Shown: in pieces, positions 1,181 to 56,046 of the stretch
Layout: every line of letters begins with the position of its first letter
How positions within the stretch are numbered: the first letter of the stretch is position 1
From: Dehalococcoidia bacterium
Lineage (GTDB): Bacteria > Chloroflexota > Dehalococcoidia > Bin125
Length of the DNA stretch: 64,000 nucleotides
Reading direction: 5' to 3'
Assembly (NCBI GenBank): GCA_963555985.3
Contig: OY820591.1
Coordinates: 2,048,001-2,112,000, forward strand
Made by a program: the position numbers and the translations under genes
Notes under the pieces: model-generated
Seen by the model: only the letters and a program-made list of their open reading frames with translations
Told to the model about the DNA's origin: nothing
The model's database searches: none

Positions 1181-1250
1181 GTGCTGGTCACGGCGAGATA
1201 CCCCTGTTCAAGCCAGGGGCAGGCTCCGCGGCGGAGCGCGGGTATGACGG
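1181..1250 (-). repeat. CGTC-type REP palindrome carrying a nested ~24-bp insert
   Basis: gtgctggtcacggcgagata[cccctgttcaagccaggggcaggct]ccgcggcggagcgcgggtatgacgg; same core as the copies at 42.1-43.0 kb. Confidence 0.85.
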
Positions 1251-10868: not shown

Positions 10869-10983
10869 CCGTCATTGCCGCGCTCCGACGCGGCAATCTC
10901 GCTGCGTGAGCGACGATGGTGCAGATCACGGCGAGATATCCCACAGGACGGAGACAGGCTCCGCGGCAAGCGCGGGTATGACG
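10869..10983. repeat. CGTC-type REP doublet (inverted pair with conserved spacer), with a nested insert in the right arm
   Basis: ccgtcattgccgcgctccgacgcggcaatctcg...cacggcgagata[insert]ccgcggcaagcgcgggtatgacg; close match to 42769-42863, spacer included. Confidence 0.85.
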
Positions 10984-40064: not shown

Positions 40065-40097
40065 GTACAAGTGTACTGTGTTGGTAGTGGGTGTCAA
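40065..40097 (-). promoter_or_regulatory. Sigma70-like promoter overlapped by a GTAC-N4-GTAC palindrome (possible LexA box)
   Basis: TTGACA-16nt-TACACT on the minus strand; gtac aagt gtac at 40065-40076. Confidence 0.5.
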
Positions 40098-40183
40098 GGT
40101 CGTTGGGGAGTGTGGGGGGGGCGATAGTTCGAGGGACGGTTCAGGGTGGCAGAGTTGCAAGGGGGAGGGGTTACGCTTGGCGC

Positions 40184-40462
40184 GTGATCATCCACTTTCG
40201 ACATCGGGGGTTACGCCGACTCTTTGAACGGGGAGACCCGAGCGGAGTTCCACCTCGGCATCGGAGGAAGATCCTGGCCATTCTGCACCTGCTCGACGAG
40301 GCCGCCGGACCGCACCAAATGCCCGACCGTTCTTTGCGGTTACACCCCCTCAAGGGGGATCGGGAAGGCGAGTGGGCGGTTGACGTCAGCCGGATTTGGC
40401 GGATCACCTTCCGATTCGTGGACGGCGATGTCCGCGATGTGGACCTGGTTAACTACCATTAG
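40184..40462 (+). CDS. higB: HigB/RelE-type toxin
   Basis: IIHFRHRGLRRLFE, LHPLKGDREGEWAVDVS..WRITFRF, DLVNYH. Confidence 0.92.
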   Translation: MIIHFRHRGLRRLFERGDPSGVPPRHRRKILAILHLLDEAAGPHQMPDRSLRLHPLKGDREGEWAVDVSRIWRITFRFVDGDVRDVDLVNYH

Positions 40463-40482
40463 TTCAGGACTGGAGCGAGACC

Positions 40483-40773
40483 ATGCCGATGTACGATCCA
40501 CCGCACCCTGGCGAGTCGGTTCTCTTGCTTTGCCTGGAGCCGCTTGAGCTCTCGATTGCCGATGCGGCCGCGCACCTGGAAGTCGACGAGGCGTACCTGG
40601 GGGCGCTGTGCGAGGGTCGGGCTGCGATCAACGCGGACTTGGCCATTCGCCTGGAGCAGGCGTTCGGCGGTACGGCTGATGTGTGGATGCGGATGCAGGC
40701 CTCTTACGATCTCGCCCAGATGCGGCTGAAGTCTGGTCATATCCAGGTCAAGCCGATCGGCTCGGCGGCCTGA
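40483..40773 (+). CDS. higA: HigA-family antitoxin
   Basis: MYDPPHPGE, AIRLEQAFGGTADVWMRMQASYDL. Confidence 0.92.
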   Translation: MPMYDPPHPGESVLLLCLEPLELSIADAAAHLEVDEAYLGALCEGRAAINADLAIRLEQAFGGTADVWMRMQASYDLAQMRLKSGHIQVKPIGSAA

Positions 40774-41065: not shown

Positions 41066-42028
41066 CTACTGAACTGATTCTCCGGACCAAGTCAGTAGTT
41101 GCCCGGTCTCAACATCCTGCACGCTCCGCAGGTTAGGTGGATTCTGACCATCGTAGATGGCCTCATCCAACTGGGATTGGATGAGGCCCCTCGCTGGGCT
41201 TGGCTCATCCTCGTGCTCCGCCCCTGAAACAACCCACATAGACCTATGTGGAGTGCTAAAGTCGGTCCCCGACAAAGTCGCACCACGAAGATTCGCTGCT
41301 TCAAGACTAGCGTCACTAAACTTTGCGAACGTGAGATCGCACTTAGAGAAGTTCGTACTAGTGCAAATCGTCCTTGCGAGATTCGCATGCCTCAGGCTCA
41401 CACCTGAAAGATTCAAGCCATGAAGATCTATGCCGACTAGCCTCACCCCGTCAAGATCAACAGCAAAGTCCTGGCTCCGCTCAAAGCAAAGTTCATCTGA
41501 CGTCCGAGAACCAATAAAATCTATAGCGAAGCTAACGTCTTCTCGAACCGAGCCACCGTCATCGCGCTCTGTCTTCGGTTTCTGGGCATTGTCGCCTCTA
41601 GCAGGATCCCGTACAAAAGCAGCGAGAAGTCTGAGCGACTGGATATAGTACTGCTCCCGATCTTGCCGCGACAGTGAGACCAAAGTATGCATCGCACTCA
41701 AGCGCACAGCATTCAGATCATGCCCAAGCATTTGGGCCGCAGCTTGGAATCGCTGATTCGAGATCGCTTCGTGCGCAGCGTTGACGCTGTCGCTCGTAGC
41801 TTTGACCTGCTGTTCGGCGACCCAGCCGCGCCAAATTGCGAGTGGTAGGGCCAACAGCCCGCCCATCATCAGCATGACGTTGCGAACCGTCGTGCTGAGG
41901 CTCTCTTTGTTGTCTCCAGTTCCAGTCAAGTCTCCCCAGAAGACGGCTGATAGCCCCGCTCCGACACTCAGCACGACGACCACAGCGACGCTGAACCAGA
42001 ACGTCCCTGACCTCAGAAGATCCCTCAT
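41066..42028 (-). CDS. Membrane-anchored pentapeptide-repeat protein
   Basis: Two N-terminal TM segments, LPLAIWR, NQRF..AAQMLG, pentapeptides (ANLAR, ANLRG), C-terminal GLIQSQLDEA...DVETGQLLTW; visibly lower GC. Confidence 0.85.
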   Translation of the reverse strand: MRDLLRSGTFWFSVAVVVVLSVGAGLSAVFWGDLTGTGDNKESLSTTVRNVMLMMGGLLALPLAIWRGWVAEQQVKATSDSVNAAHEAISNQRFQAAAQMLGHDLNAVRLSAMHTLVSLSRQDREQYYIQSLRLLAAFVRDPARGDNAQKPKTERDDGGSVREDVSFAIDFIGSRTSDELCFERSQDFAVDLDGVRLVGIDLHGLNLSGVSLRHANLARTICTSTNFSKCDLTFAKFSDASLEAANLRGATLSGTDFSTPHRSMWVVSGAEHEDEPSPARGLIQSQLDEAIYDGQNPPNLRSVQDVETGQLLTWSGESVQ

Positions 42029-42113: not shown

Positions 42114-42296
42114 CCGTCATACCCGCGCTCCGCCGCGGGTATCTCGCCGTGTTCAGCACGGACGTCGGTGCTCGTCGCGGCGAGATTGCCCCCTGTTCAG
42201 GCCAGGGGCAGGCTGTGGCGGAGCACGGCAATGACGGATCTTGGGGGGTGGGTGCTGGTCACGGCGAGATTGCCGCGACGGGGCGCGGCAATGACG
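42114..42296. repeat. CGTC-type REP cluster (doublet plus single copy) downstream of the GIY-YIG gene
   Basis: ccgtcatacccgcgctccgccgcgggtatctcgccg...cggcgagattgcc[insert]gtggcggagcacggcaatgacgg; gtgctggtcacggcgagattgccgcgacggggcgcggcaatgacg. Confidence 0.9.
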
Positions 42297-42336
42297 AGGT
42301 GGGGGCGATGACGGTGCTTGTTGGGTCTCCGTCGTA

Positions 42337-42627
42337 TCAGGCTAGGTCGAAATAGAGGTCTCGCCACTTAGGGTTGAACTTGTCGATCATGCCGCGACGA
42401 CGGGTCTTGCTCCAGCGCTTGATTTGTTTCTCTCGGGCGATCGCTTCGTCCATATGGTCGTGGGCTTCCATCCAGACCAGCTTGTTGATCTGGTAGCGCT
42501 TGGTGAAGGCGGAACCTTCGCCGCGTTTGTGCTGCCAGACGCGACGGGCGAGGTCGGCGGTGACGCCGGTGTAGATGGGTCCGTGGGGTCGGCTGGCGAG
42601 GATGTAGACGCAGGGTTGGCGGGGCAT
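42337..42627 (-). CDS. Stand-alone small GIY-YIG nuclease (96 aa)
   Basis: CVYILAS..HGPIYTGVT.DLARRVWQH, FTKRY, AIAREKQIKRW, NPKWRDL. Confidence 0.92.
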   Translation of the reverse strand: MPRQPCVYILASRPHGPIYTGVTADLARRVWQHKRGEGSAFTKRYQINKLVWMEAHDHMDEAIAREKQIKRWSKTRRRGMIDKFNPKWRDLYFDLA

Positions 42628-42651
42628 GGTGGGTAGGGTAGCGGGGGCTTG

Positions 42652-42969
42652 GTGCTGGTCACGGCGAGATACCCGCGGCAAGCGCGGGTATGACGGATCT
42701 TCGGCGGGGCATGGTGGGTAGGGTAGCGAGGGTTTGGTGGTCGCGGCGGCGGGGTACCTCCTCTACTACGTCATTGCTGCGCTCCGTCGCGGCAATCTCG
42801 CTGTGCGAGCGACGACGGTGCAGAACACGGCGAGATACCCGCGACGGAGCGCGGGTATGACGGAGGTTTTGTTGGGCGCGGGTGTGACGGATCTTTTGGG
42901 TGTGGGCGGCAGGCAGAGAGGTTGGTGCTGGTCACGGCGAGATTGCCGTGGCGGGGCACGGCAATGACG
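42652..42969. repeat. CGTC-type REP cluster upstream of the GIY-YIG gene (single, doublet, partial, single)
   Basis: Copies at 42652-42696, 42769-42863 (doublet), 42876-42890 (partial) and 42925-42969. Confidence 0.9.
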
Positions 42970-43009: not shown

Positions 43010-46000
43010 CTAGGTTTTCAGCAGGGCGGCGATGCGGCGGGCGGTTTCTGAGAACCAGGCGACTTCGGTGACGGTTAGGGGGCGGCCCAGCACCTTCTCT
43101 TCTCGGTAGCTGAGCCACTTTTTGAGGACCTGGTAGCCGCCCAAACGGTATTCCCAGACCGCCAGCGGTACGTTTGCCCAATATGTCTTGTCGTTCAGGT
43201 AGATGTCCACCGCTTGCCCGTGCTTGACGATCTTGCCTCGGCCGGGCATGACGGCTTGGTTGGCTCCGAAGCGGCCCCAGTTGGCGGTGAGGGCGAAGTC
43301 GTCGGGTTGCATTTGGGTTCCGTCGGTTGTGGTGGGGACGGCGATGGTGTGGTCTAGGTAGGCGGAAACGTCGGACTCGGTGTCGAGGAGGCGGGCGAGT
43401 TGGCGGCCTTTGGCGGCGGACTTGGCGAGAGCTTCGGGGGTGCCGGGGAGGGGGATGCGGGGCCAGCCCAACCTCAAGGGGTCGGCATTGGCGGCTCGGT
43501 ACTTTGGATCGTGCAACGTCGCCACGACGTGGTAGAACAAGTTCTCAGGCTCAGCATCTAGGGATTCGACGTACTTGACGCCTCTGTCGGACAAGTTGAG
43601 CACCCGTTTGGTGGTGTCTGACTCAAGATCAAATTGGAGATCGCGGAGATAGAGCGGGAACCAGCTTGAGAGTCCGTTGCCGAAGTTGTCCGCCATCGCT
43701 CGCACGACAGTACCGCGCTGATACTCAGACTGTGGCTCCCGTTCACGGGCTTCGAGCCAAAGGTTCTCTGCGAACACGTGCGACTGATATTCCGGTCGTG
43801 GACGATCCAGTAGGCCGGCCTGGTCTGACCAGTAGAGCCAGCGGAGATCGAAGGGGCGGTAGGCGTAGCGAATGAAGTCCGTGTCGGCTGCGTCTACGTG
43901 TTCGGCGATGCGCTGCTTGAGCTGATCGAGATCGATGTCCACTACGAGCGAGTCGCGGCTGGTCTTGACGCCGGGGTAGTAGGCGGGGAAGAGGTCTACG
44001 AGGGAGGGCCAGTCGAACCAGTGGTCGCTGACGGCGACGGGGGTGAAGGGGAGGCCGAGGCCGGGCGTGGGGGCGATGGGTTGGTAGAGGGCGGACGGTT
44101 CGGATTCGGCGGTTTCGTCCAGTTCTTGGAGCTTGCCGACGCCCCAGAGTTCCCGCCAGTCGATCTGTTGGGCGGACTGGTGGGATTGCTTGCGGATCAG
44201 GGTGGCGACGGCGGTGCCGACCTGGATGCCGAGCGGATCGTCGGGGGTGGAGAAGATGCTGGGGTCGGGGTCGCCGTCTGGGGTGAGTTTGCCGGTGCGG
44301 TATTTGTCGCCGTTGAGGTTGTCGATGCGGATGTCGTCGAAGGCGTGGAGGTAGCGCTGTCTCATGCCGGGGAAGGAGAGTCCGTCGAGCCAGGAGTAGT
44401 TGGAGATGAAGCAGACGACGCCCTCGCCAGTCTTGTCGGCGATGCGGCGTTCGGCCATGCGGAAGAAGCGGACGTAGAGGTCGTTGAGGCCCTGTCCCTG
44501 TGGTTTGGGCAGGTCTGGGCCGTTGACTTGGCGGTAGGCGTCGGAGAGTTCGCGCTCCTCGTCGACGGCGACGCCGGCGAAACCGCTGTAGGGCGGGTTG
44601 CCGAGGATGACGAGGATGGGTTGTTCCTGTTTGACGGCGTCGGCCTGTTGGCGTTCGTGTTCAAGTTCGGGGAAGGGCATGGGTTTGGTGGTTTCGGGTT
44701 CCCAGCCGATCAGGGCGTTGGTGAGGAAGACGCCGGCGCGCTGGTTGGGTTCGAGCGCGGCGCCCAACTGTTCGAGGGCGAGTCCGATTTCGAGGTGGGC
44801 GACAACGAGCGGGGCGGGCATGATTTCGAAGCCGAAGATGCGGGTGGTTGCGGCCTGGCGGGCGGCGGCGGGAGCGGCTGCGCCCTGGCCGGTGGCGAGT
44901 TCGGTTTGAGCGATGCGGCGCAGGGTCTCGATCAGGAAGGCGCCGGTGCCGCAGCAGGGGTCGAGCACGTAGACGCGCTCGTCGGCGAGTCCTTTGGGGA
45001 TCTTGAGGTCGTCGCGGAGGGCCTGGTCGACGCGGGCGACCATGTAGCGGACGACTGCGCGGGGGGTGTACCAGACGCCGAGTTGTTTGCGGAGGTCGGG
45101 GTCGAAGGCTTCGAGGAAGGGTTCGTAGAAGTACTGGACGGCTTCGCCTTCGTAGAAGCGTTTGAGGAATTCTTCGCGGTCGACGCGGTCGAGGGCGGCT
45201 TCGGTCCAGTCGAGGACATCGGTGAGGTTGAGGCGTTCGAGCCGGCCGGGGTCGGTGAGGTGGTGGAAGAGCATTCGCAGGACGGGCGCGCGCAGGCGGT
45301 AGGCGGTGTCCCACCAACGGAAGCGGTCAGTTTTTCCGGCGGCGAGATCGGCGCGGGAGGAGAGGACCCAGGCGGTGAAGATTCCGTAGAAGAGGGTTTG
45401 CACGAGGGTGGAGCGGAAGAAGTCCTGTCCGCGGGCGTCCTCGTAGCGCATGCCCAGGGCTTGCTCCAGGGCCTCGCGGATGGGGTCAAGGGAGGTTTCA
45501 GCGGCGGCGGCTTGTTCGACGCGCTGAAGCGCCGCTTGGGCGTAGGCGGCCAAGAGCCGGGCCAGGTCGCGCGGATCGGCGATGGCTGCCTGGTGCGTCA
45601 TCACACGAGTCAAGTACTGACCCAGAGCGAGTCCGTGTCGGTTGGCGGCGGCGGTCGGGTGCTTGAGGAGTGCGGTGAAGTCGGCGTCGGTATCGGCGAG
45701 GGAGTAGCGTTCGAGGACGGCTTTGGAGCCATCGCGGTCCTCGCCGACGAGGGCGAACGCTCGCAAGTTGGTGCACAAGACGAGTTTGTGTTGACGCCAG
45801 TACTTGTCGACTTGTTCGGAGGCGATCAGGGCGTCGAGGTCGTGGTCGGAGCCTTTGACCTCGACGACGCCGCGGTCGGGTTGGGGTTGGTCGGCGGAGA
45901 AGAGTCCGAGGTCGGGTTGGCCGGATGTGGTCTCGGCGTAGTGGACGACGGCGCGGACTTTGGGTTTGAGTTGGTCGCCGAGGGCGTCGAAGAGGTTGTC

Positions 46001-46099
46001 GAGAGCGGTGTAGTGGGAGAGCTCGGGCGTGCCGACGCGGTTGACGCCGGCGATGGCGTGGAGGTAGTGGAGGACGGCGGTTCGGAGTTCGGAGTTCAC
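43010..46099 (-). CDS. Fused restriction-modification enzyme: PD-(D/E)xK nuclease + N6-adenine methyltransferase + Type ISP-like C-terminal specificity domain, no helicase
   Basis: GTG start VNSELR overlaps the upstream stop; PDLGLF...VEVK; YFYEPFL..FDP..RKQLGVWYTP; DPCCGTG; GNPPY; YAYRPFD.RWLY; VWEY.LGGYQVLKKWLSYRE. Confidence 0.88.
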   Translation of the reverse strand: MNSELRTAVLHYLHAIAGVNRVGTPELSHYTALDNLFDALGDQLKPKVRAVVHYAETTSGQPDLGLFSADQPQPDRGVVEVKGSDHDLDALIASEQVDKYWRQHKLVLCTNLRAFALVGEDRDGSKAVLERYSLADTDADFTALLKHPTAAANRHGLALGQYLTRVMTHQAAIADPRDLARLLAAYAQAALQRVEQAAAAETSLDPIREALEQALGMRYEDARGQDFFRSTLVQTLFYGIFTAWVLSSRADLAAGKTDRFRWWDTAYRLRAPVLRMLFHHLTDPGRLERLNLTDVLDWTEAALDRVDREEFLKRFYEGEAVQYFYEPFLEAFDPDLRKQLGVWYTPRAVVRYMVARVDQALRDDLKIPKGLADERVYVLDPCCGTGAFLIETLRRIAQTELATGQGAAAPAAARQAATTRIFGFEIMPAPLVVAHLEIGLALEQLGAALEPNQRAGVFLTNALIGWEPETTKPMPFPELEHERQQADAVKQEQPILVILGNPPYSGFAGVAVDEERELSDAYRQVNGPDLPKPQGQGLNDLYVRFFRMAERRIADKTGEGVVCFISNYSWLDGLSFPGMRQRYLHAFDDIRIDNLNGDKYRTGKLTPDGDPDPSIFSTPDDPLGIQVGTAVATLIRKQSHQSAQQIDWRELWGVGKLQELDETAESEPSALYQPIAPTPGLGLPFTPVAVSDHWFDWPSLVDLFPAYYPGVKTSRDSLVVDIDLDQLKQRIAEHVDAADTDFIRYAYRPFDLRWLYWSDQAGLLDRPRPEYQSHVFAENLWLEAREREPQSEYQRGTVVRAMADNFGNGLSSWFPLYLRDLQFDLESDTTKRVLNLSDRGVKYVESLDAEPENLFYHVVATLHDPKYRAANADPLRLGWPRIPLPGTPEALAKSAAKGRQLARLLDTESDVSAYLDHTIAVPTTTDGTQMQPDDFALTANWGRFGANQAVMPGRGKIVKHGQAVDIYLNDKTYWANVPLAVWEYRLGGYQVLKKWLSYREEKVLGRPLTVTEVAWFSETARRIAALLKT

Positions 46100-47005
46100 T
46101 CGCGTCCCACTCCGCCGCGCCAGACGAGGGGTTGTCCGGTTTCGGCGTCGAGCACGCCGTCGAGGATGGGGGGGTCGTCGGGATCGGCCATGGCGGAGTC
46201 GATCTGAGCTTGGGTGAGTCCGACGGCTGGGCCTTCGAGTCGGTCGGAGAAGATGGCGCCGCTGATGTCGGCGCCGAGCAGGTTGGCGCCGGTGAAGTTG
46301 GCGGCCCAGAGTTCGGTGCCGTGGAGGATGGAGCGGGAGAGGTTGGCGTTGGTGAGGTTGGCTCCTGAGAGCCAAGCGCCGGAGAGGTCGGCACGGCGCA
46401 GAATCGCGTCGACGAAGTAGCCGCCTTCGGCTCGAGCGCCGGCCCAGTTCTGTCCGGTCCAGTCAATCGGATGCCAACCCGGGAGCCGTTGCGACACCGA
46501 GTCTGTACGCACACGCACGAGGGTCTGTCTGTCGAACGGCAACGGCTTGACCGGCTTACGCCAACGCTTCGTCGTCATCGTCAACCTCCGGCGACGTCAG
46601 CCGCTCTCCGCTGGTCAGCATGGTAATGACGGCGAGCGCGTATCGATCAGGATAGTCTTCAGCGAGCTGCCGCAGCGTTAAGATCGCCGCACCCCGGACG
46701 CCGGCGTGAGGGCTCAGAAGCCAGTCCACGGCTCGATTGAACCGCTCATCCAGTAGCGTTTGATGCGCGGTCTCGGCCTGGCGCTCGCTGACGCGGCTGC
46801 GCCAGATGGCGAGGGGAAGAGCGATCACGGCGGCGGCGATCAGGCCGAAGTTGCGCACCTCGTCGGAGGAGTCCCACCAGATGATCGCGACTGTGATCAG
46901 CAGTACTAGCGCGGCGATCGTGACCAGCGCCAGGCGCGACTCTAAGCGCCACAATGCTGAGCGGAGCAGTGCTTCCAACCATCGCAGCGGGTCAATCCAA
47001 CTCAC
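46096..47005 (-). pseudogene. Membrane-anchored pentapeptide-repeat gene split by a frameshift near 46560-46585
   Basis: N-half 47005-46556 (TMs, LPLAIWRSRV, DERF) and C-half 46584-46096 (ADLSG/ANLTN repeats, GLTQAQID...DAETGQPLVW) together match the architecture of 41066-42028. Confidence 0.75.
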
Positions 47006-55985: not shown

Positions 55986-56046
55986 CGCGGGAATCCGGAT
56001 GTCACTCGAGACGCCGCATGGATTCCCGCGTGCGCGGGAATGACGG
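55986..56046. repeat. CGTC-type REP, ATTCCC/GGGAAT subtype, as a partial doublet
   Basis: cgcgggaatcc...ggattcccgcgtgcgcgggaatgacgg. Confidence 0.8.

Follow-up and report, generated by a model that had tools for sequence, protein, structure and literature searches.

Small GIY-YIG proteins of the Ssn family (cd10448) have been described as site-specific nucleases of single-stranded DNA (ssDNA) (Chenal et al. 2025, Nat Commun 16:2388, PMC11893778). SsnA of Neisseria meningitidis, 94 amino acids (aa) long, binds the 28-nucleotide (nt) NTS hairpin CGTCATTCCCGCGMAVGCGGGAATCYRG as ssDNA only and on one strand only, the C just after the palindrome being critical for binding, and cuts a few nucleotides upstream of the CGTCAT-tagged hairpin (NTS/SRM); the substitutions Y6A, Y17A and E64A abolish cutting (PMC11893778). 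Here we analyse a 64-kb stretch (the window; C1:2048001-2112000, C1 being the main contig) of a metagenome-assembled genome (MAG) from a probable Dehalococcoidia lineage, in which a gene for a 96-aa GIY-YIG protein, hereafter gene A, lies amid CGTC-tagged hairpins. We consider gene A to be a member of the Ssn family, and the surrounding palindromes to be its cognate SRM and hence repetitive extragenic palindromic (REP) sequences of the CGTC-tagged class, with a probability of about 0.85.

In the study of Chenal et al., nuclease activity was experimentally shown for the Neisseria and Wolbachia homologues, the four characterised enzymes being those of N. meningitidis, N. elongata, N. wadsworthii and Wolbachia, and the role of SsnA in Neisseria is the modulation of natural transformation. 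At least one SRM was present near the gene in 71% of Ssn homologues, with SRM on both sides in 42%, and 137 of the 169 genomes with more than 200 motifs encoded an Ssn homologue (PMC11893778). The discussion of that paper describes the NTS-ssnA-NTS arrangement as insertion-sequence-like and likens it to IS200/IS605 elements and REP-associated transposases; domestication and repeat expansion are put forward there as hypotheses. The repeats themselves belong to a previously surveyed superfamily of CGTC-tagged REPs, Neisseria dRS3 included, which occur mostly as head-to-head dimers, seemingly without a dedicated transposase, and were reported in five phyla among which Chloroflexi does not figure (Di Nocera et al. 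2013, BMC Genomics 14:522, PMC3733652). The original prediction on the window, made from its letters alone, had already treated CGTC-tagged palindromes as a separate REP class, in agreement with this survey.

A single-domain GIY-YIG gene bracketed by CGTC-tagged hairpins

The product of gene A matches the GIY-YIG domain PF01541 at residues 5-76 (E 5e-15) and no second Pfam domain, which bears out the stand-alone 96-aa GIY-YIG gene that had been predicted. Its start codon, an ATG at 42627, is consistent with the MPR(Q/E)P N-termini of its orthologues. The protein possesses Y8, Y19, R29, H33, E66 and N85; across 22 homologues from related genomes R29, H33 and N85 never vary, and the two tyrosines and the glutamate hardly do. 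The spacing of Y8, Y19 and E66 is that of the SsnA residues Y6, Y17 and E64, with a constant offset of two residues, in a protein that is, like SsnA, a single GIY-YIG domain of about 95 aa.

The pattern CGTCATWSCCGYG has ten matches in the window, compared with a mean of 0.04 and a maximum of one in 100 shuffles, and six of the ten fall in 42115-42969 (Table 1). Around gene A, units of the form CGTC-AT(A/T)(C/G)CCG(C/T)G-loop-complement-CTCG make up seven complete hairpins, three downstream and four upstream, together with two head-only fragments, close to the three and four or five copies originally counted on the two sides. The C directly after the palindrome is present in all seven complete repeats, and the gene is bracketed by 55-nt arms that are 93% complementary. 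The outermost downstream hairpin (42115-42146) is the left arm of a convergent doublet completed by the 42181-42236 unit, and the upstream doublet, composed of 42769-42800(+) and 42831-42862(-), belongs to a heterodimeric doublet family of about 93 nt. When folded as DNA, single units form hairpins of -10.4 and -11.1 kcal/mol (z -2.7 and -3.5) and the doublets fold as one hairpin with z -8.2 and -7.4, the first of these values corresponding to a single long hairpin of -41.7 kcal/mol at 42765-42866. The unit with a nested insert (42175-42240 folded) gives z +1.0, 171 of 200 shuffles folding at least as well. The arrangement at gene A is real and far beyond chance.

Copies of the same family were also predicted far from gene A between convergent genes, and two such copies do lie there. 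One is the repeat at 1194-1249; the other, the doublet at 10870-10983, is located between an amidohydrolase gene (+) and an ABC ATPase gene (-). As proposed, the two arms of this doublet and its spacer all align with 42760-42875, except for an insert in the right arm.

The locus resembles that of SsnA in its inverted CGTCAT-tagged hairpins flanking the gene, in the occurrence of the motif in hundreds of copies and in the C after the palindrome, and a local ATTCCCGCG subfamily is identical to the first 25 nt of NTS. With the CGTC-tagged REPs it shares the unpaired CGTC tag, the GC-rich palindromic stem, the short tail and the head-to-head dimers; the 2013 survey had no enzyme for these repeats, a gap that Ssn fills. 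Like RAYT/REPIN systems, it consists of a single-copy gene between inverted copies of a genome-wide REP family, with doublets that fold as long hairpins, a REP type for each paralog and repeats placed between convergent genes. Unlike them, it encodes a hydrolytic GIY-YIG nuclease instead of an HUH/Y1 transposase, and its tag is CGTC instead of GTAG.

Repeat families, paralogs and homologues

The assembly holding the window (3.33 Mb, 65% GC, 11 contigs, 96% complete, 7.5% contamination) contains 537 CGTCAT heads of 15 stem types, the main ones being ACCCGCG (174), TCCCGCG (167), TGCCGCG (67), TCCAGGC (34) and TCCAGCG (32), and the tag is CGTC(AT) in every subfamily. The heads of C1 group into 282 clusters, the largest of which is the seven-head cluster at gene A, so that repeat density here is not background-like, in line with the original prediction. 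The published degenerate SRM sequence has 209 matches in the genome and 23 in the reversed genome, and three 1-Mb Markov-1 simulations gave an expectation scaled to 23-57 per genome. The first 25 nt of the NTS consensus occur in 81 copies (none in the decoy) and the full 28-nt consensus in one, the latter being rare because the local tail is ATCTCG or ATCCAT. With a slightly wider head definition we obtained 546 heads, of which 408 close into a hairpin and 138 are head-only, that is, tag plus 5' half-stem. For 44 of these fragments the next head on the same strand lies within 45 nt, and a portion of the 138 prove to be outer arms belonging to large nested mosaics. Half-site arrays also accumulate just outside complete repeats near ssn genes of relatives (loci L005, L009 and L010).

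Neighbouring pairs at up to 80 nt among the 398 family hairpins are overwhelmingly convergent (83, against 7 + 6 tandem and one divergent). The doublets are heterodimers, namely ATTGCCGC + ATACCCGC (32 times, about 93 or 97 nt, with two spacer variants), ATTCCAGC + ATTCCAGG (28 times, 83-85 nt) and ATTCTTGC + ATTCCCGC (seven times). Doublets of the first type are those around gene A, and those of the second surround gene B, a paralog 64% identical to gene A. On C1, 13 of the 27 B-type doublets have an identical twin elsewhere, one sequence being present in nine copies, and the nearest copy of each A-type doublet (n=31) is 1-12 edits away; judged by this divergence, the A-type population is the older of the two in the source genome.

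Identical B-type cores are enclosed in a larger conserved palindrome closed by ATTCCCGCG-type arms, which makes the recurring unit a nested mosaic some 200 nt long: the loop of a ATTCCCGCG-type hairpin holds a stem AGGCCTTTGC / GCAAAGGCCT, which in turn encloses the ATTCCAGCG/ATTCCAGGC doublet. Nine mosaic copies have an identical 83-nt core. The intergenic mosaic elements of Neisseria and the bacterial interspersed mosaic elements of Escherichia coli likewise consist of nested, alternating repeats of several types; the mosaics described here, with B-type doublets inside a palindrome closed by ATTCCCGCG arms, differ from them in composition and host.

Gene B lies in a five-head cluster, a size exceeded by just three clusters, with ATTCCAGCG/ATTCCAGGC stems and a doublet on either side of the gene; its neighbours are a carboxyltransferase gene and a gene for an unannotated protein. 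The genome has three GIY-YIG matches: genes A and B and a 652-aa frame, which is presumably UvrC. REP clusters of top rank therefore contain both small GIY-YIG genes of the genome, and the stem type differs between the two. Each gene is single-copy, the only adjacent remnant being a 37-nt fragment beside gene A. For the abundant ATTCCCGCG family, tblastn with ten diverse homologues (E<=10) recovered no cognate gene in the assembly, only A and B. The same search gave a weak match at C1:254604-254798 (E 0.003, 30% over 76 aa) to one Ssn clade, which may be a remote GIY-YIG remnant, and in the relatives G024 and G013 the ATTCCCGCG stem flanks a distinct Ssn clade. The HUH transposase whose absence from the window had been noted was not found at a larger scale either: none of the four candidates scored in the whole genome, which is 96% complete, matches the Y1/RAYT model PF01797, and no RAYT flanked by the same REPs was found.

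We compared these genes with homologues from 41 related genomes (24 of the same family; 16 of the 41 have a match at E<=1e-5) and from the 80 best loci of a species-representative collection searched with an eight-sequence alignment. The latter come from Dehalococcoidia, Alpha-, Beta- and Gammaproteobacteria and other groups; the three closest, at 81-89% identity, are all in Dehalococcoidia MAGs, and no Neisseria or Wolbachia locus is among these best 80. In the 96 homologous loci with at least 150 nt of flank on both sides, a GTC-tagged hairpin lies within 300 nt in 84 and on both sides in 58, and tagged-hairpin density is eightfold higher near the gene than at 900-1500 nt (4.12 against 0.52 per kb). 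Inverted matches of 14 nt or longer, exact throughout, link the two flanks in 51 of the 96 loci, compared with 5 of 96 when loci are mismatched. Full-length homologues in the related genomes are nearly always bracketed by a '+' hairpin upstream and a '-' hairpin downstream, and over the ssn loci the upstream repeats are 78 '+' and 46 '-', the downstream ones 69 '-' and 43 '+'. The two closest orthologues have one repeat per side at 34-38 nt. Flanking of this GIY-YIG subfamily by REPs across genomes, raised in the original prediction as a check, is thus seen at most of these loci.

The stems around the homologues differ by paralog and include ATACCCGCG, ATTCCCGCG, ATTCCTGCG, ATTCCGGCG, ATTCCAGCG, GCCCCAGA, GTCCCCGC(C/G), TCCCCCGCG and ATTCCGACG. 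In a 31-row tree, each of four clades supported at 99/99 or above has a single stem type across different genomes, and clades with different stems coexist in one genome (four in G018, three in G007 and G024, two in G013 and in the source genome). A 102-row tree requires 43 stem-label changes, whereas 200 shuffles needed 60.5 on average and never fewer than 55; this contrast is inflated because the hosts are related, and the comparison of paralogs within a genome is the cleaner evidence. Stem type follows the protein clade and not the host genome, so that the covariation of REP sequence with nuclease phylogeny that had been foreseen is recovered. A deeper Ssn clade (L013, L014 and L025, from G040 and G031) is flanked by an imperfect repeat of the GTCATCCTGAGCG.AGCGAAGGA type and not by CGTCAT hairpins; two of its three members, L013 and L025, encode proteins about 20 aa longer at the C-terminus.

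The assignment of gene A to the Ssn family draws on the architecture of the locus, the genome-wide repeat family, the co-occurrence of gene and repeats and the covariation of stem and protein, all of which are observed here. Several points weigh against it. The catalytic-residue match to SsnA rests on spacing and not on an alignment with a characterised Ssn. The published SRM sequence is fitted by only one of the seven complete repeats at the gene A locus; with their 9-bp stems (ATACCCGCG/ATTGCCGCG), 5-6-nt loops and ATCTCG tail, these repeats are an SRM variant. An NCBIfam search of the gene A protein returned no model above cut-off, and its only solved relative is the UPF0213 protein 1ZG2 (BH0048; E 2e-6, 31 bits), a match far weaker than the 40-83% identity to repeat-flanked homologues. 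In favour of the assignment, nine of the 41 related genomes have 76-2,517 CGTCAT heads (3-13 in controls), the other 32 having at most 46, and an ssn homologue at E<=1e-27 is present in eight of these nine, figures to be read with the provisos that the 76-head threshold was picked after viewing the counts and that related genomes are not independent. The ninth, G014 (one contig, 98% complete), has 230 heads and a 696-aa GIY-YIG frame only, so that its repeat population is an orphan; at the other extreme, G019 (3.4 Mb) has 2,517 heads, about one per 1.35 kb, and a single close ssn homologue. A last point against it is that the Neisseria role cannot simply be transferred to an uncultured Dehalococcoidia-like organism. 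The host, a probable Dehalococcoidia MAG, is not a proteobacterium, and the supplement of Chenal et al. contains five rows with Chloroflex-, Dehalococc- and Anaerolinea- names and apparent SRM counts of 13-30 (PMC11893778). The source genome also departs from the published account in its two paralogs with separate repeat families; the word 'paralog' is absent from the main text of that article (PMC11893778).

SsnA has been characterised biochemically and the gene A protein is known from sequence alone, so that we infer its activity from the Neisseria work (PMC11893778). By this analogy, the protein would recognise the hairpin as a monomer, only in ssDNA and only on the tag-bearing strand, reading the stem sequence and the C just past the palindrome, and would hydrolyse the strand a few nucleotides 5' of the CGTC tag through its GIY-YIG site (Y8, Y19, R29, H33, E66 and N85) with Mg2+. 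Gene A would then sit between inverted copies of its own target, in a repeat-ssn-repeat layout, and paralog B between copies of another target type. The cuts may serve the restriction of incoming ssDNA, as in Neisseria, or the maintenance or spread of the repeats.

The original prediction, in which the GIY-YIG protein may nick or mobilise these repeats as its cognates, is right in substance. The pairing with CGTC-tagged REPs and the RAYT-like arrangement stand, and the predicted nuclease activity agrees with what was found for the Neisseria and Wolbachia homologues; for mobilisation the support is circumstantial. The pairing idea is right but not new, since Chenal et al. published it, the RAYT/IS200 analogy included (PMC11893778).

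Mobility and competing explanations

The repeat-ssn-repeat unit may be, or may recently have been, a selfish mobile element, comparable to REPIN/RAYT or homing systems, whose nuclease drives the copying of itself and of gene-less derivatives. This explanation adds to the Ssn assignment and does not conflict with it, and we regard it as possible but doubtful. GIY-YIG homing endonucleases of the I-TevI type have a separate DNA-binding domain and target an intron-less double-stranded DNA allele. Gene A resembles them in its catalytic fold and residues, in its position in or next to its own recognition sites and in the decay of gene copies, and differs in having no separate DNA-binding domain and in its probable target, an ssDNA hairpin. 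We know of no strand-transfer chemistry for the GIY-YIG fold, and since a GIY-YIG enzyme only hydrolyses DNA, copying would have to proceed via host repair or replication of the cut hairpin, for example by break-induced copying from a filled site into an empty doublet, and not by covalent cut-and-paste. The same hypothesis is raised in the discussion of Chenal et al. (PMC11893778), and our literature search, in which that article was the one relevant result, found no published follow-up on Ssn mobilisation.

The clearest material on this question comes from G007, which has an intact A-type gene lying between single ATACCCGCG repeats and six further loci with decayed units. At least five dispersed units (on its C1 near 695, 703, 990, 1256 and 1465 kb) have the same ssn deletion of about 105 bp; these five share substitutions and have unrelated outer flanks, the sixth copy has a different deletion, and some of the unit copies have a CTAGGGCGTGTTCACA-like end. 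The presence of the defective unit at five places would mean that the deletion came first and copying of the unit as a whole followed, although the deletion is bounded by a 6-nt direct repeat, AAGCGC, and might have recurred. In G032 there are 21 matches; in-frame stops are frequent among them, as are positions at contig ends. In the source genome, the predominance of convergent pairs, an orientation also commoner around ssn genes, and the identical twins among B-type doublets point in the same direction, but dispersed identical copies are also explicable by gene conversion among repeat clusters. Further points against mobility are that each ssn gene of the source genome is single-copy, with one adjacent 37-nt fragment, and that the heads retained by G014 show that repeats persist without a small GIY-YIG gene. 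We saw no new insertion, no empty site and no target duplication. Synteny with the nearest genomes is too eroded for site comparison: in four of the five, a distance of about 34-165 kb separates the genes flanking the 10.9-kb doublet, and in G007 only one of these genes was matched, and with coding DNA at 72-81% identity, orthologous intergenic sites are not comparable. Active or recent enzyme-dependent copying seems to us on balance unlikely, without being far-fetched.

Taken together, Ssn and the CGTC repeats might constitute a second replicator like REPIN/RAYT that evolved independently and works through a hydrolytic GIY-YIG nuclease, a proposal that we make only tentatively. The unit would copy itself and give rise to internally deleted units (the five in G007) and then to heterodimeric doublets of 85-95 nt. 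Each paralog would keep its own population, young for the B type and older for the A type, and such populations would outlive the loss of the enzyme, as in G014 and possibly in the ATTCCCGCG family of the source genome.

Alternatively, the repeats could mainly control ssn, as autoregulation sites, terminators or insulators, their genome-wide copies being ordinary REPs that the nuclease happens to bind. A repeat does lie 37 nt upstream of the gene A start, and 34-36 nt upstream in the two closest orthologues; the distant copies in the window are downstream of convergent genes, a typical REP placement; and the Ssn study itself began from a regulator hypothesis (PMC11893778). We nevertheless find this improbable, given that the homologues go beyond binding, being active nucleases of ssDNA only (PMC11893778), and that hundreds of copies in paralog-specific families exceed the needs of self-regulation. 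The possibility that repeats merely collect in long non-coding stretches next to an unrelated UPF0213-type housekeeping protein can draw on the nearest solved structure and on the patchwork of defence and toxin-antitoxin genes with long spacers in this region, but the placement of both small GIY-YIG genes in top-ranked clusters, the 84 of 96 loci across many phyla with their eightfold local enrichment, and the stems tracking protein clades make it exceedingly improbable.

With gene A read as an Ssn protein, the locus confirms the published system and is not its discovery; the lineage and the repeat variants are apparently new. Also apparently beyond the published account are the two paralog-specific heterodimeric doublet families, the repeats without a cognate gene, and a relative with at least five dispersed repeat-gene-repeat units sharing one deletion. 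The enzyme partner of the CGTC-tagged REPs, absent from the 2013 survey (PMC3733652), was supplied by the 2025 Ssn paper (PMC11893778). The present data extend repeat-rich Ssn systems to a probable Dehalococcoidia lineage, with about 2,500 heads in the 3.4 Mb of one relative. They supply naturally occurring pairs of enzyme and target, with the new specificities ATACCCGCG/ATTGCCGCG and ATTCCAGCG/ATTCCAGGC, that could serve the ssDNA-tool applications proposed by Chenal et al. (PMC11893778), and comparative material on the spreading by Ssn of its own repeats, in the form of deletion derivatives at several loci, identical dispersed doublets and orphan populations.

Genomic setting and minor observations

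Table 1. Features in the window and, where marked C1, on the main contig
Position	Strand	Feature	Basis or remark
1194..1249	-	REP, stem ATACCCGCG, with nested 24-nt hairpin	between convergent DUF2867 (+) and AFOR (-) genes
10870..10983	+	doublet of the 42769-42862 family, right arm with insert	hairpin 10870-10901 and head 10971-10983
40091-40773	+	HigB-like toxin and helix-turn-helix partner	just beyond the immediate neighbours of gene A
41066-42028	-	membrane pentapeptide-repeat protein	neighbour of gene A
42115..42146	+	REP/SRM hairpin, CGTC tag, 9-bp stem ATACCCGCG, tail CTCG	pattern match, folding
42181..42236	-	REP hairpin, stem ATTGCCGTG, 24-nt nested small hairpin in 3' arm	
42265..42296	-	REP hairpin, stem ATTGCCGCG	pattern match
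42300..42314 (approximate)	-	head-only REP fragment (tag and 5' half-stem, without 3' arm)	by eye
42337..42627 (stop codon included)	-	gene A, ssn-like, 96-aa GIY-YIG	open reading frame and Pfam
42665..42695	-	REP hairpin, stem ATACCCGCG	37 nt upstream of gene A start codon
42703..42739	-	duplicated gene A start codon and leader, 37 nt	95% identity to 42618-42654
42769..42862	+	convergent REP doublet, arms ATTGCTGCG (+) / ATACCCGCG (-)	30-nt spacer
42876..42890 (approximate)	-	head-only REP fragment	by eye
42938..42969	-	REP hairpin, stem ATTGCCGTG	pattern match
43010-46375	-	Type IIG restriction-modification enzyme, 1,121 aa	PADLOC E 6.5e-96; Pfam Type_ISP_C, N6_Mtase
56018..56045	-	REP, ATTCCCGCG type	first 25 nt fit the Neisseria NTS consensus
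C1:84724-85014		gene B, second 96-aa GIY-YIG	64% identical to gene A
C1:78240-78580, 172060-172400, 1926460-1926800 and about 15 others		nested mosaics, about 200 nt	

Gene A is flanked by the pentapeptide-repeat protein gene and the Type IIG enzyme gene, in a patch of defence and toxin-antitoxin genes with long spacers. This setting would suit a defence-like role, such as ssDNA restriction as in Neisseria, but a single locus is no evidence for it. PADLOC has no model matching the gene A protein.

With respect to the assembly, the cumulative GC skew of C1 rises near-monotonically over about 2.8 of 3.1 Mb, with no V shape, and C2:12049-12145 is an exact repeat of C1:3056331-3056427; these findings and the 7.5% contamination suggest redundancy or odd joins in parts of the assembly. 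The repeat tag strand seems under-represented on one strand, an observation that is uninterpretable because the skew of C1 gives no credible origin or terminus.

A small hairpin of 23-24 nt (core CCCCTGG-loop-CAGGGG, preceded by AGCCTG) interrupts the repeats at about 19 sites genome-wide, among them 42181-42236 and 1194-1249 in the window and C1:59353, 963360 and 2786758. It always sits where the 3' arm begins, its carriers represent at least four stem types (TGCCGCG, TCCCGCG, TCCTGCG and ACCCGCG), and it looks like a second-order insertion targeting the repeats.

An 85-bp tandem duplication (window 42607-42758) comprises the upstream REP and the leader, start codon and first ten coding bases of gene A, and as a result a dead copy of the gene A start sits 85 bp upstream of the real one.

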